The notes under the pieces: generated by a model
Told to the model about the DNA's origin: nothing
Database searches by the model: none
What the model saw: only the letters and a program-made list of their open reading frames with translations
Shown: positions 2,097-63,330 of the stretch, one piece after another
How the letters are laid out: every line of letters begins with the position of its first letter
Position numbering within the stretch: position 1 is the stretch's first letter
Source of the DNA: Okamejei kenojei
Lineage: Eukaryota
DNA: 64,000 nt
Reading direction: 5' to 3'
Assembly: GCA_035221665.1 (NCBI GenBank)
Contig: CM069162.1
Location: 18,352,001 to 18,416,000, forward strand
Translations under genes and position numbers: made by a program

Positions 2097-3887
2097 CTTA
2101 TGCATTTTCTAATGTCCGTTAACCCTTCAAGTGCTGATCCCCCCCCCCCTCTTGCAGTCCACTGTTTGAGACCATTTTGCATACATTCCAGAATTGTTGT
2201 CTTCAAAAGATGTCCATTTCTCATCTTATGGACCTGATAAATCAAGGAAGAATTGGCTTACGTTGGATGCACAAGGGCAAAATCTCACGGGGAAATATCA
2301 TGAATAGGCATAAGGCAAAACCTATTTGCTTAATGATCCCATTGAAGCTGCTGAACAATCAGCGTCAGAGTCAGTATAGCATTCAGTGAAAAAGACCTCA
2401 ACACCTCAGCATTATTAAATGGTTCCACTGAATGCTTCTGTCAAGAAACCTGCAAGACAAGAACTGTCCAAAAAGCCAGATTGCTTATCTGCAAATTATC
2501 ACTGTACTATTAAGGCCACAGACTAATACATTCAAGGATGCAGAACATTTAGTGTTAAAGTATAGATCATTTATAGTTTAGGATATTGGCTGATCTGTCA
2601 CAAATGCAAACTGACACCGTATCAGATGTAATGATAGAAGGCTTCATTTCAGAGCATAAGGGACAACGCACCAATGACTTGTATTAAAAATTGCATTGCT
2701 GTATTGATGAAGTTGTATTAGCACAGAGAGTCCACGGGTTTCACAAGGGTTGTTCCCGAGAACTGTCCATACAACAATTTCTCTGCAAGTCAGAAACATC
2801 CGTTTTCTATAATAATCCATATGGTGTTGCTCTGCAAACACTTGCCATAATTCTTTCATTTCATTCGATGAATCACCACAACACTACACACAATTAAACA
2901 TGGGATATATACCTCATCCAGCCATTAATGAATAACAGGAAATGTATTATTATTAGTATTAGCAGCTTGAACAATGCTTAAAGGTTGATGGGGAAATGTG
3001 TAACGTTACATTTCCATAAGTCAAGTCATTCGTAACCCGGGTAGTCCCTGTGCAGTCAAGAACATATGTCCTCCATTTTAAGAACTCATTACCACCATTA
3101 CAAAAATGAGTTTTCTCCGGGTGCTCAACCTGTCTCTGGTATCCCGAAGAAATATTACTCAGTTAACTGCCACTGCATATTACCCCTTCTGTGTTGATTA
3201 ATGGCAAAATACTCAAAAGGAGAGAGTTGGTGGGCTAATACGAGAGGGGATGAGTTGCAAAGATACAAATGAGGAGAAATGGAGACAGCAAGGACCTAAC
3301 AAGTCAAATAACTCCTCCTGTACCATTATAAAATGTGGTACAATTCTATCACAATTCTTGCAACTTGTTTAGTTGAGTATTATTTATTTTGTTACCATGG
3401 AAGTCGTTTTGGTCAATTAAAGAAATGGTCATGAATTCATGGACTGTACAATGGGAATACAAAATTTCATAGGTAAAGCATGGCTTGGAGAGGCACTGTA
3501 GAAATATAATGATAGTCAGTAAATCAAGATAATTTCCCCAACAGTGGAAACAGTGTGCGTGTGAGGGCTTGTGATCAGGGCGGCTTGCTGGCTATGGCAG
3601 AGATAATTATTGTTTCACATACGTTGTGAATCCTGACCAAGAATAGATTCCTCCTCCTTCCTAACTCTTGGCCCACAGCCCTGCAGAGTGGAGTTGTCCA
3701 TATGTTCACCCAATGTGCCATGTTTTCTCCTCCTCCAAAAAAAAAATGCAGTTCCTCAAATTTCTCAGGGTTGAATTCCATGTCACACTTTGTGCCTGCG
3801 TGTAGATCATTAATATCTTCCCGCAGCCTAGAATCTGCTGTCGTGCCGACAACTACGAATCTAAACCTTCTTCGTCACAACTGACCA

Positions 3888-40264: not shown

Positions 40265-41105
40265 TAAAGAAGGAACTGCAGATGCTGGAGAATCGAGGGT
40301 ACACAAAAAGCTGGAGAAACTCAGCGGGTGCAGCAGCATCTAAGGAGCGAAGGAGATAGGCGACGTTTCGGGTCGAGACCCTTCTTCAGACTGGTCAGGG
40401 ATCAGGGAAACGAGAGATATAGATGGTGATATGGAGAGATAAAGAACAATGAATGAAAGATATGCAAAAAAGTATCGATGATAAAGGGAACAAGCCATTG
40501 TAAGCTGTTTGTGGTGTGAAAATGAGAAGCTAGTGCGACTAGGGTGGGGGAGAGATAGAGGGAGAGGGAATGCCAGGGCCCGAGGGCTGAGGGAGAGGTG
40601 GGAAGGGGAGGAGACAGCAAGGGTTAACAGAATTGAGAAAATTCAATGTTCAAGCCCAGAGGATGCAGACTCCCCAAGCGGAATATGAGGTGCTGTTCCT
40701 CCAACTTGCGGTGTTGCTCACTTTGGCCGTGGAGGAGACCCAGGACCGAGAGGTCGGATACGGAATGGGAGGGGGAGCTGAAGTGCTGAACCACCGGGAG
40801 GTCGGCTTGGTTATTGCGGACCGAGCGGTGTTCGGCAAAACGATTGCCAAGCCTCCGCTTGGTCTCACCGATATAGATCATCTGGTATCTGGAGCAGAGG
40901 ATGCAGTAGATGAGGTTGGAGGAGGTGCAGGTGAACCTCTGTCGGACCTGGAAGGACAACTTGGGTCCCTGTAAGGAGTGGAGGGGTGAGGTGAAGGGAC
41001 AAGTGTAGCATTTCTTGTGGTTGCAAGGGAAAGTGCCCTTGACAAGGGAGTTTCGGAGGGCGGTCTTTGCGGAAGGCAGACAAGGGGTCACGTTGGAGGG
41101 TGGCA
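40265..41105 (-). mobile_element. Penelope-like element: GIY-YIG ORF end plus complete pLTR with intact hammerhead-like core
   Basis: PCNHKKCYTC..FTCTSSNLIYCILC..IYIGETKRRLGNRFAEH..GLNIEF; CTGAAGAAGGGTCTCGACCCGAAACGTC at 40362-40389. Confidence 0.9.
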
Positions 41106-41303
41106 AAACTGGCGGAGGACTATGTGTGCAGTGGATTGCAAGACCTGATTATACCAGAGAGGGTGCAGAGATGATTCTCCGTTGTTACCTGGGACAGAAT
41201 GCAATTATAAAGGAGATGTGGGAGAGTTTTCCTCTCAGCCAAAAAGGCAGTGGGGACTGTGACAGAGGTGAGGCATCTACAGTGTCGATGGCAAGAAATG
41301 GTC

Positions 41304-42799
41304 TGTAAAAATTGTACCTTTATGTAAATGAAAACTTTACAAGAATGTACAACATCAACGAAGGCGTTATGATTAATGTTTGGGCAAGAGTGAGGTAACT
41401 ATATTAGGTGCATATAAACCCATCTACATCCTTCCCCTTAGAAATCAAAAAACAGATTGTTGTCACGACAACCGAATTAAACAGCAGGAAAGTGGATCCT
41501 GCCCGAGCGCGTACGGATCTGGAGGGCATGGCAGCCGGCTGCGGACCGGGAGACGGAATGCTCCAGCACCCGAGGTTTCAGCAATTGGATCTGGTAGTTC
41601 TGGACATCGACGTGAGCAGGGGACCCCATGGCCGGGGTGAGGTTCAGGAGATTCCAAATACAAATCAGAATTGGATAGTCGCGCCTGTTCCATCAGAAGC
41701 TTGGCGCTGCGGAAGGCCGTTGCTCTGTGGGTAGTGAATGCACGAAGACTTGTCGGCAAAGCTACTGCCTGCCGTTGTCAGTCTGCAGCTGACCGGGGTC
41801 CCAGTGTTTCCGCAGCTTGCGGTCCGACGTGAGGGATGTCAGCCAAATCCACTTCGCGAGTCGACCCAGGACAAGGTAGTGGTTATGGCCACCACACAGG
41901 GGCTGTCGCTGCTGGTGCGGCGCAAGACTGTTGCAAGCAGGCAGAAACTCGGTCTCGGATATATTTGGCCATTCCACCAGAGCGTGGGCAAGCGTTTGCA
42001 GATAACGGCACCAATTTCGTCGCGGACCAGGAAGAAAGGCTTGGTGCTTCAGAGAGCCACCCTGCTTAATCACCGATGCAAGCTGCTGCAAGGCCGGATC
42101 GGCAGCGGTGTGCTCGGCCACCTGTAGCTGCTTGGTGGGAATGTTAACGCCCAGTACGAGCAAGTCCTCTGTTTCGTAGGGGTGGCGAGCTACGCGGGGC
42201 TCGCGACAGGTGTCCGCAATGTGCAGTAGTTGGAGCTTTTGAATCGGCTTGTTCAGGAACCGGTGGTTTTCGTAAATCTGCTGGAAGTCTCTGAACTTGC
42301 AGGAGCGTACCGCTGCTGTGTCCGTCATGGTGCGGGAGGCATAGGAGACGGGATGCAGCGATCCGTCGACCTGAAGGCAGGCCGCACCCAGACCGAACTT
42401 GGAAGCGTCACAGGTGAGGTGATGGGGCGACCCACGTCGAAGAACCGCAACGTCGGAGTGCTAATCAGTTTCGACTTGAGGCGGTCAAAAGCCTGCTGGT
42501 GAAATGCACGAAGACTTGTCAAGTCGCAGCCTGACAAAAGTGGAGAAGTGTTTCCGCAGGATCACCATCTCCGACGTGAGGGATGTCAGAGGACACCAAT
42601 GAAAACATGGAGGCGTGGGTTCGTATCCCACTTCTGACACCATGTAAATGGTACTACATCTTTTGATTGGGTTATTACACACACCTTCAAGCACCGGCTA
42701 CATTTTCTACTGAGGGGAAGGCGTTATGATGATGTTAACTGGGCGGGGTAGTGAAACTATATTAGTATCTACACTTTATGAACGGGTACTATTTTTACA
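41304..42799 (-). mobile_element. Non-autonomous, heavily deleted Gypsy LTR retrotransposon
   Basis: TG..CA LTRs at 42643-42799 and 41304-41428; tRNA-Leu PBS; PPT AGGGGAAGGA at 41429-41438; pol remnants AFDRLKSKLISTPTLRFFD, PVSYASRTMTDT, TAADPALQQLASVIKQG. Confidence 0.85.
42607..42642 (-). promoter_or_regulatory. Primer-binding site complementary to the tRNA-Leu 3' end (extended to 36 nt)
   Basis: TGGTGTCAGAAGTGGGAT directly after the LTR end, continuing ACGAACCCACGCCTCCAT. Confidence 0.88.
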
Positions 42800-42809
42800 G
42801 ACATCCTAT

Positions 42810-54541: not shown

Positions 54542-57405
54542 TTGGTGCGCCGTGTAGATGGCTGCACTGACGAGAGCTCAGAGTCATCTCAGCAAACTTG
54601 TGTGTATTTATTTTTTATTACTTGTTCTTTTTGTACATACTGTTCTTTCACGCATTCAGTATGACCGATTATTACTTTTGGAGGTAAGCAAGTCAGCCAA
54701 TGGTGACTTGAAGCCGGTTATTGATATCACGGACGGCGGGCTCCCCTGGGTGTTTTGCTAACCCGCACAGCGGCAGCGGAGGAAAGCAAAGCGAGGGAAG
54801 CGTGCTGGCGCTCCGTGCAGAAGCCGGCGAAGAAACAACAAACCACCTCTGCCCAGCATCCCGCTAGCGAATGTGCAATCCCTGGACAATAAACTGGACG
54901 ATGTTGCGCACACGGATCGAACACCATCGGGACATTAAGAACTGCTGTGTTCTGGCGTTCACAGAGACGTGGCTGGAGACCAGCGTACTCGACTGTGCCA
55001 TAACTCCGGGGAGTTTTTCCGTCTACCGACAAGACAGAACGAAGGAATCAGGCAAGTCTAGAGGAGCCGGAGTATGCTTTATGGTTAACTTTTCGTGGGC
55101 CATGGATGTCTGCGTTTTAACTACACGCTGCTCCCCGGTCCTGGAGCTGCTGACCATTAAAACTAGACCTTTCTACCTCCCGAGAGAGTTCAGCTCCAGT
55201 CCTCCTTACAGCTGTTTACATCCCCCCACAGGCTGATAAATCCCTAGCCCTGGAAGAACTGTATAGGACTGTAAATGAGCTGGAGAACTCCCACCCTGAG
55301 TCTGCGGTCATTGTCCTGGGAGACTTCAACAGAGCCAACATGAAGAAGGTTCTCCCAAAATATGACCAACACATCACTTTTCCCACCAGGGGAGAGCAGA
55401 AACTGGACAATTGTTGCACCCCATTCAGAGACTGCTACAAGCCCATCCCCCCCACCCTGCTTTTTGGAAGGCAGATCACTGTTCCATTCTACTGCTGCCT
55501 GCATACAGGCAGAAACTAGAACAGGAAAAAACGGTTTACAGGGACATTTACAAATGGAACAATGAGGCTGATGAGGTCTTGCAGGACTGCTTTGCCAAAA
55601 CCGACTGGCAGATGTTTGAGGATGTAGCAGAAGGCAGCATCAACTGTCTTAGCCTACATAAGTAAGTGCATCGATGATGTTGTTCCAAAAGCCACCATCT
55701 GCACTTACCCAAATCAGAAACCTTGGGTCAAAGGAGAAATTTGTGCTAAACTCAAAGCACGGACCACTGCCTTCAACTCAGGGGACTCCGACGCCTACAA
55801 AGCAGCTAGATATGACCTCCGGAGGTCCATCGGGAAAGCCAAGAGAGTCTACAGGGACAAAGTGGAATCTAATTACTACAGCTCTGACCCCAGACGCATG
55901 TGGAGTGGATTACGTTGCATCACGGATTACAATGGGAAAAACAGGAACACTGTCCAGCCTACCGCTTCGCTCCCGGAAGAGCCTAACACCTTCTATGTCC
56001 AGTTCGATGCACACAACACAGTGCCCACCATGAGTCCACAGGTGTGTAGGGGGACTACCTCACTGACCCTACAAACGGCAGACGTAAGGCGGTCCTTCAA
56101 AAAGGTCAATGACCGCAAAGCTCCTGGTCATTCCAGGGCGGGCCTCTCAGGGTGTGCACTGATCAACTGGCAGAGGTGTTCACCAACATCTTCAATCTCT
56201 CCCCGAGTCAGTCTGCGGTTCCCACTCCCTTCAAAGCATCCATCATTGTTCCTGCTCCAAATAAACCATTAATCTCCTGTTTAAATGACTACCGTCATTT
56301 ATACCGTCATACACTATCATTCCCTCAAAACTCATCCCCAAGCTCCTTGATCTTGGACTGGAAACCTCCATCTGCGGCTGGATATTCGACTTCCTGACGG
56401 GCAGGCCCCAAGTGGTGAGAACTAGCAGCCACACCTCTTCCTCATTGATCCTCAACACATGCGCACCACAGGGCTGTGTGCTCAGTCCTCTCCTGTACTC
56501 CCTGTTCACGCACGACTGTACTGCTAAGCACAGCTCCAACATCATCTTAAAGTTTGCTGACACGAGCATCCTGGGCCTCATCACAGACAATAATGAGGCG
56601 GCCTATAGAGAGGAGGTAAAGGCACTAAACAGCTGGTGCCAGGAAAATAACCTCTCTCTCAATGTCAGCAAATCTAAAGAGATGATCGTGGACTACAGGA
56701 GACAGCAGGGGAGTAAACATCTCCCCATCCACATCGGTGATGCTGAGGTTAAAGGAGTCAGTGTGCACATCACTGAGGACCTCTCTTGGACACTGCACAT
56801 GGACACAATAAATAAGAAAGCCCGCCAGCGGCTCTTTTTCCTGAGAAGACTGAGGAAGTTTGGCATGAACGGCAGCATCCCCACAAACATCTACAGTTGC
56901 ACCATCGAGAGCCAGCTGACGGGCTGCATCACAGTCTGGTACGGGAACTGTTCTGCCCACAGCCGCAAATCACTACAGAGAGTGGTGAAGGCGGCACGGC
57001 ACATCACTGGCAACTGTCTCCCGGCCATTCAGGACATTTTCCACAGGCGGTGCCTGCTGAAGGCACACAGCATCATCAAGGACCACAGCCACCCAGCACG
57101 CAGACTGCTCTCCTTGTTACCGTCAGGCAGACGATACAGGAGCGTGGCTGCACGTACCACCAGACTTAAGAACTGCTTCTATCATCATGCCACCAGGCTT
57201 CTGAACTCATAAACACTTCATATATGTTGATTATTTTATTTATTTTCTTTTACCTACCAATGTCTCTTTTATCTTATATTTTTTAATCTTAATTTTATCC
57301 TTGTAATATCATTGCTGAGGTGACCAGTTGTCTTGTCAAACACATTTAATTGTACCGTTGACCCTGTGTAAACCTACATAGGACAAATAAAACTGAACTG
57401 AACTG
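54542..57405 (+). mobile_element. Rex1/Babar non-LTR retrotransposon, apparently full length, frameshifted and internally deleted
   Basis: APE: LANVQSLDNK, AFTETWL, GKSRGAGVCF, VLGDFN, ADH; RT: [28 protein letters not shown]; stop near 57212; tail AATAAA(ACTGA)3; possible AAATG TSD. Confidence 0.93.
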
Positions 57406-62799: not shown

Positions 62800-63147
62800 T
62801 AGATCATAAGATCATAAGTGATAGCAGTAGAATGAGGCCATTCGGCCCATCAAGTCTACGCCATCATTCAATCATGGCTGATCTATCTCTCCCTCCTAAG
62901 TCCATTCTCCTGCTTTCTCCCCATAACCTTTGGCACCCATAATAAGAATCTATCTATCTCTGCCTTAAATAGACTTTGCCGCCACAGCCTTCGGTGGTAA
63001 AGAATTCCACAGATTCACCACCCTCTTACTAAAGAAATTCCTCCTCATCACCTTTCTAAAAGAACATCGTTTAATTCTGAGGCTATGACCTCTAGTTCTA
63101 GACTCTGCCACTAGTGGGAACATCCTCTCCACATCCACTCAATCCAA
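62800..63147 (-). mobile_element. CR1 3' end
   Basis: Colinear with the 44-340 and 44280-44640 copies. Confidence 0.88.
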
Positions 63148-63330
63148 GTGGTTAGCGTAGTGGTTAGAGTAGTGGTTAGCGTAGTGGTTAGCGTAGTGGT
63201 TAGCGTAGTGGTTAGCGTAGTGGTTAGCGTAGTGGTTAGCGTAGTGGTTAGCGTAGTGGTTAGCGTAGTGGTTAGCGTAGTGGTTAGCGTAGCGGTTAGC
63301 GTAGTGGTTAGCGTAGTGGTTAGCGTAGTG
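63148..63330. repeat. (GTGGTTAGCGTA)n 12-bp tandem array, ~15 copies
   Basis: Near-perfect array with single substitutions in two units. Confidence 0.97.

Follow-up and report, generated by a model that had tools for sequence, protein, structure and literature searches.

The primer-binding site of an LTR retrotransposon in Okamejei kenojei extends 17 nt beyond the usual 18 and departs from its tRNA at position 58, and the question raised by this locus is whether it preserves the trace of a reverse transcriptase that failed to stop at m1A58. The element lies in a 64,000-nucleotide stretch (assembly GCA_035221665.1, contig CM069162.1, positions 18,352,001 to 18,416,000 of the forward strand), hereafter the window, and window coordinates are used throughout. 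A sequence-only reading of this DNA had quoted a 36-nt primer-binding site. Those 36 letters are present at 42607-42642, with T at 42624 and the TG of the LTR adjoining at 42643. The extended tRNA match holds, but it measures 35 nt (42608-42639 plus CCA), with a single mismatch, T for A58, against exon 2 of a tRNA-Leu(CAA) gene (L094). The match likewise continues past position 58 as claimed, but for 16 nt instead of 17, since the A at 42607 mismatches the variable-loop C of the genes. A 31-nt stretch of the window has 497 matches at no more than one mismatch in the 2.76-Gb genome while its reversed control has none, and the long tRNA match is therefore not a product of chance. On sequence grounds, this part of the window is a copy of the 3' 35 nt of a mature tRNA-Leu, placed between the 5' LTR and the deleted interior of a Ty3/Gypsy element.

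The element itself is a young, internally deleted copy on the minus strand, bounded by a 5-bp target duplication. Its parts are given below, with ruler positions that refer to one natural 4689-bp family copy used for coordinates only.

41323-42773, minus strand: internally deleted Ty3/Gypsy LTR-retrotransposon copy with TG...CA ends, 1451 bp (from a pairwise map on a family copy and the empty site elsewhere)
42774-42778, no strand: target-site duplication, right copy, 5 bp
42643-42773, minus strand: 5' LTR, 131 of 187 bp kept, with 7 small deletions
42625-42642, minus strand: canonical 18-nt primer-binding site, equal to tRNA-Leu 59-76 including the non-genomic CCA
42624, plus strand: tRNA position 58, T for A, with dA opposite m1A58 the likely origin (from the spectrum over copies)
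42608-42623, plus strand: a further 16 nt of tRNA-Leu that take in the T-arm, position 48 and the variable arm's 3' side and stop one base short of the variable-loop C (end points of other copies pile up there)
42607, plus strand: A where the variable-loop C is expected; a misinserted base and the first junction base look the same here
42590-42606, minus strand: junction filler, about 16 nt, with no match of at least 10 nt in the family copy
42493-42589, minus strand: integrase-core region (ruler 3501-3662), the first landing piece, which appears again further on
41440-42502, minus strand: what is left of the interior between RNase H and the 3' end (from ruler position 2488), with many small deletions
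41429-41439, minus strand: polypurine tract (from sequence and alignment)
41323-41428, minus strand: 3' LTR, 106 of 187 bp kept, with deletion sites that differ from those of the 5' LTR
41318-41322, no strand: target-site duplication, left copy, 5 bp

Read in its own direction, the copy passes from the long primer site through about 16 filler bases into an integrase piece, returns to RNase H, and ends with the polypurine tract and the 3' LTR. An in-frame RNase H Pfam match survives at 41762-42457; gag, protease and RT are gone. In contigs from two other samples the flanks meet directly, with no element between them, and the insertion is therefore young and polymorphic. Contigs of other samples show no alternative letter at 42624, but none of them spans the element.

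Full-length relatives are about 4.69 kb long with 187-bp LTRs that are 96.8-100% alike, and all seven window-family copies examined have 187-bp LTRs and 5-bp duplications. In the natural frames of two relatives (L259 and L256), Pfam places protease, RT, RNase H and integrase in that order. The best solved-structure matches of the RT are 4ol8 and the Ty3-G Gag-Pol 7q5b, at E 5e-63, with the foamy and MLV enzymes far weaker. Domain order, RT match, TG...CA LTRs, primer site, polypurine tract and target duplication all identify the element, by sequence comparison, as a Ty3/Gypsy LTR retrotransposon. The short length and the Leu primer make the Mag clade of Gypsy a candidate group.

As assembled, the window copy also bears some 70 small deletions (1-132 bp) and few substitutions, and the deletions differ between its two LTRs; a few other copies are gap-rich too (L235, L242, L232, L233). 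Microhomology-mediated repair was considered for these deletions and rejected, given that 47 of the 57 breaks lack a shared base where 54% would lack one at random, a comparison that gap placement by the aligner may bias. Host sequence around the insertion forms a short palindrome, with 16 of 17 bases complementary (41301-41317 with 42786-42802), and the element occupies its loop.

To which tRNA genes, then, does the long site correspond? The Leu(CAA) 5' exon occurs at 15 places, comprising 11 complete genes, 3 broken ones and 1 retro-copy (L103). All 11 complete genes have an intron after G37, A58, C as the third loop base and no CCA, and all six Leu(CAG) genes have A58 and the loop C. Neither of the findings that would tell against misreading was made: no Leu gene among these carries T58, and the match beyond 18 nt survives comparison with the species' real tRNA genes. 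CCA is present in the copies and absent from the genes. The retro-copy L103 is a whole tRNA-Leu(CAA) from base 1, spliced and bearing CCA, flush against the LTR inside a two-LTR element; it follows that the mature tRNA was the template. ARAGORN found no tRNA in the window, and its calls on the loci at relaxed settings were spurious. Its naming of the intron-bearing Leu genes as Thr was set aside in view of their CAA anticodon, their Rfam RF00005 matches and the spliced L103, for which ARAGORN's own call is Leu(caa). A second intron-bearing tRNA gene lies near one of the Leu(CAA) genes (L102:2664-2752, minus strand).

Two other origins of the altered bases were also discarded. Native inheritance of T58 from the parent element fails on the native base at this place, which is C in the window's family, and CpG decay fails at both altered sites, neither A58 to T nor the loop C (followed by T) being a CpG.

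The long site is one of many. Extended through CCA to the next base, the 31-nt stretch has 139 exact matches in the genome, and its variants with A, C or G at position 58 have 210, genes included. A set of 169 LTR-linked copies was assembled from the 171 exact matches listed between contig 1 and 23.4 Mb of contig 9, less two genes. In nearly all 169 the CCA adjoins the LTR start, with the tRNA copy inside the 5' LTR, at the primer site, an arrangement on which we rejected a LINE-made tRNA retropseudogene or a tRNA SINE. Position 58 reads T in 71, A in 68, G in 15 and C in 15. The junction flanks are distinct in 159 of the 169, which fall into 45 crude LTR-start groups, and counting one copy per junction gives T67, A63, G15 and C14. 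These are hundreds of independent events and not one fixed variant. A non-autonomous (TRIM-like) LTR family with a fixed long primer site was discarded on the same 159 distinct junctions. One locus (L053/L054, G000:C2:8644907-8645022) has a tandem pair of long primer sites at a spacing of 85 bp, and an LTR start follows each of them.

It might be supposed that one or a few founders gained a long T58 primer site and spread as non-autonomous subfamilies. Some junctions are indeed common to several copies (one hot spot in five, one in three, and four pairs), and short two-LTR copies, which keep a primer site and a polypurine tract, might in principle be mobilised again. However, the junctions are overwhelmingly distinct and the one-per-junction spectrum is unchanged, copies that share a junction differ at position 58 or in LTR type, and the main hot spot is explained by 10 bases common to the tRNA and the integrase region. 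We give this explanation almost no credence. The same data correct the proposal that the longer copy had become fixed in the element as an inherited trait: with distinct junctions and all four bases at position 58 within one LTR group, the long site is instead made anew in each defective copy, and copies with a native leader keep the 18-nt primer site.

How common such copies are was gauged on an unbiased sample, the first 100 of 317 exact joints between an 18-nt primer site and an LTR start, drawn from five contigs with exact anchors and with solo LTRs left out. Fifty-two joints reach the variable arm, 8 run 5-12 bases past position 58, 22 have the native leader of the window family and 18 are other, among which 5 prove by eye to be native leaders of the window's or a second family. 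The 60 extended joints in 100 are a census of surviving copies and not a rate per replication, since defective copies may persist longer. In the 52 long copies position 58 is mismatched in 37, against 14 of 780 at 15 neighbouring places (Fisher p about 1e-40). Mixed mismatches confined to position 58 form the pattern that m1A58 would be expected to leave. The A58 copies, 68 of the 169, demonstrate read-through and are not proof of methylation; they would arise by correct insertion or from unmethylated tRNA. When other primer tRNAs were searched in a generic way for this signature, with position 58 changed, 11 matches came up against 7 in the control, no excess, and 5 of the 11 were Leu variants.

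A second site of error lies further into the tRNA. The loop C reads T in 68, C in 43, A in 6 and G in 4 of the 121 copies that run through the loop, and is thus misread in 78; when the five copies at the hot spot are set aside, since their C may belong to the landing site, the tally is T68, C38, A6 and G4. A separate genome-wide list contains 92 matches, 7 of them genes; a tally by eye of the other 85 gives T54, C24, A4 and G3 at the loop place. That place is non-C in 61 of the 85, and its three loop neighbours are off in 2, 2 and 0. All four LTR-linked Leu(CAG) copies read T there as well. The enzyme also tended to stop: 28 of 157 copies end one base before the loop C, as the window copy does, compared with 17 of 496 at the four places that follow (p 1.6e-8), with end points blurred by bases common to the tRNA and the landing site and with L103 scored short at one internal mismatch. 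Mismatches and a stop thus meet at a single C, which points to a modified base, probably m3C; for Leu(CAA) this is a prediction. Correct readings at position 58 and at the loop C are weakly coupled (p 0.03 with the hot spot counted), which hints at a pool of under-modified tRNA.

A third, nearly absolute barrier stands before G37, and m1G37 is its likely cause. Position 38 is reached by 28 copies and is the last tRNA base in 20 of them (p 1.5e-9), with no base favoured at 37 (C8, G8, A7, T5). One copy, L103, passed G37 without error. Reverse transcriptase errors in zebrafish tRNA are described at m1A58, m1G37 and the variable-loop m3C (PMC11417395), and error sites of vertebrate tRNA are also given by PMC8062790.

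The chemistry at the second and third sites could be different, even if read-through is real and position 58 is m1A: C-to-U editing or a modification other than m3C would account for the loop, and structure or other anticodon-loop chemistry for the stop at 38. In keeping with this, T makes up 68 of the 78 loop mismatches, the ends rise in the anticodon stem too (positions 39-42), and PMC11417395 lists the zebrafish variable-loop m3C for Leu-CAG and Ser and not for Leu-CAA. Yet A and G occur as well (10 of 78), a stop one base before the loop C is unexpected from a plain U, and the last barrier lies immediately before G37, where many tRNAs are known to carry m1G. We therefore regard such chemistry as unlikely; it would alter the identity of the marks and not the mechanism.

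Nor do variant genes offer an easy way out. Faithful copies of tRNA-Leu genes with T58 and a loop T, absent from the assembly, are conceivable inasmuch as arrays of tRNA genes may be collapsed in an assembly and a search with the Leu(CAA) 5' exon found only its 15 matches. Against this, each of the two sites shows all four bases, and does so on both isodecoder backgrounds, the 20 further candidates from the genome-wide list all proved to be LTR-linked copies and not genes, and the stops beside the loop C and at G37 would be left unexplained. The chance that such genes are responsible appears very small.

Which enzyme copied the tRNA? The error spectra of two LTR groups differ, with T against C plus G at position 58 standing at 29:3 in one and 7:12 in the other (p 8e-5), a difference to be expected if the tRNA was copied in each case by the enzyme of the element itself. 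The tRNA part might instead be the work of a different enzyme, either a LINE reverse transcriptase or a polymerase of host repair, acting after failed primer removal or during repair. Short unexplained inserts of 1-15 bases at 12 of 30 mapped joints, the window's included, would suit this origin, as would the heavy later deletion in the window copy. It is opposed by the place of the tRNA copy, inside the 5' LTR in primer-site orientation with CCA flush against the LTR and not outside the 3' end, by the lack of poly(A), and by error spectra that follow the LTR group. We judge a foreign enzyme to be very improbable.

Taken together, the gene comparison and the multi-copy spectra strongly support the earlier proposal that the RT misread position 58 and copied on into the mature tRNA, and we consider it very probable that these long copies arose from a failure of the element's RT to stop at m1A58 in plus-strand synthesis. 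In the mechanism that we propose, m1A58 would be bypassed mostly by insertion of dA (read as T) and sometimes of dC or dG. The enzyme would then misread or stall at the methylated loop C and almost always stop at m1G37. An over-long plus strand would no longer fit the native primer site and would anneal elsewhere, often by a few shared bases, giving a deletion when it anneals on the minus strand and an inversion when it anneals on a plus-sense template. Both ends of the product would still be proper LTR ends, and integrase could insert the defective copy in the germline.

Not all joints show the shared bases that this path leads one to expect: 12 of the 30 mapped have the short inserts in their place. 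A script classed 73 window-family loci as 21 native leaders, 40 collinear jumps, 9 inverted jumps and 3 unmapped, in a sample enriched for long sites and with at least two labels that inspection shows to be wrong, L144 being inverted and L229 native. Landing sites are scattered over the element, and 8 of 18 insert-free joints share at least 3 bases, against 2% at random. The interior is inverted relative to the long primer site in L012, L022, L024, L120, L145 and L205, and in several of these the landing site is a single 10-base match within the integrase region. A clean 5-bp target duplication is found in the window copy and in 2 of 16 short copies besides, under crude end-calling in which several LTR ends were called short; integrase presumably inserted the remaining copies as well.

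The native leader of the window family can pair with tRNA positions of about 47-54 through G-U wobbles, in a computed duplex better than 1000 of 1000 shuffles. Beyond 18 nt, computed duplexes between leader and T-arm reach -22.9 and -22.4 kcal/mol in two families, with 0 and 1 of 1000 shuffles as good; for three second-family leaders 1, 7 and 81 of 1000 shuffles are as good. This pairing with the tRNA-Leu T-arm, mostly by G-U wobble, is computed for the leaders that adjoin the primer site in L079 and L254. Such pairing is possibly an extended primer or a rescue element, and would likely rescue short over-runs. Extended tRNA pairing is a feature of Ty1 and Ty3. The leader pairing also resembles the primer over-extension sequence of lentiviruses and spumaviruses (PMC13191261), with the difference that here it is made of G-U wobbles and is computed only. 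In one full-length copy (L072/L264), tRNA positions 54-58 with T58 are rejoined to the native leader.

Related systems are known for the stop and, reportedly, for the transfer step. Pulsinelli and Temin reportedly described in 1991 retroviral deletions that start right after the primer site and reflect misplaced strong-stop DNA within one replication round. Those were reportedly vector experiments with few clones; like the copies here, the mutants would represent aberrant plus-strand transfer, and a direct precedent for tRNA read-through with errors may exist. Our literature search, whose coverage did not extend to the older retroviral work on such transfer, turned up no account of over-run tRNA copies that had integrated with modification errors, and a small-scale precedent is possible. 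For HIV-1 RT in vitro, the main stop is at m1A58, minor products end at 55, 54 and 37, and only short over-runs are productive (PMC13191261). Extra tRNA copying is stated to prevent completion and integration, and whether m1A58 is the plus-strand stop in vivo is described as a question open for decades (PMC8599865). The HIV-1 over-runs (P3-P5; PMC13191261, PMC8599865) represent the same step and the same stop base, with minor products to later modified bases including 37. They were, however, observed in vitro or in cultured cells, whereas here hundreds of over-runs were integrated and inherited with their misinserted bases kept. The reading of tRNA modifications from RT errors follows the same logic, through mismatches and stops at m1A, m3C and m1G; in the present case it was a transposon enzyme that did the reading, in vivo, and the result was kept in the genome.

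The process itself, read-through as seen in vitro for HIV-1, is known; what is added here is a population-scale record bearing three likely modification marks. The genome likely holds a DNA record of germline tRNA modification. We further lean towards a stronger reading, in which the m1A58 stop is so leaky in the germline for this Gypsy group that mis-transferred over-runs are the commonest integrated form with a primer site (60 of the 100 sampled joints), and the genome is a natural modification-sequencing record of m1A58, an undescribed m3C in the Leu(CAA) variable loop and m1G37, with enzyme-specific spectra. If this is true, germline tRNA modifications could be mapped from assemblies alone in other species. 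The copies would provide an in vivo germline read-out of three likely modifications, one of which they predict where zebrafish tRNA-Leu(CAA) has none listed. As hundreds of inherited insertions, they reveal the fate of a leaked plus-strand stop with evidence of misreading at single bases, and point to a major route to deleted and inverted LTR-element copies. Annotation tools that limit the primer site to 18 nt would miss the pattern.

Beyond the retrotransposon, the window contains further features, and its repeats appear similar to those of sharks or rays. The frame at 40627-41148 (minus strand) has a weak GIY-YIG match, E 1.7e-4, just under the Pfam cut-off, and we take it to be possibly a Penelope-like remnant. 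A 12-bp tandem repeat of about 15 copies lies at 63147-63330 beside a SINE-like repeat, and as a guess may stem from a tRNA D-arm-like head. A LINE-type reverse transcriptase fragment, with RVT_1 and ALKBH8_N matches, occupies 56289-57212 (plus strand).
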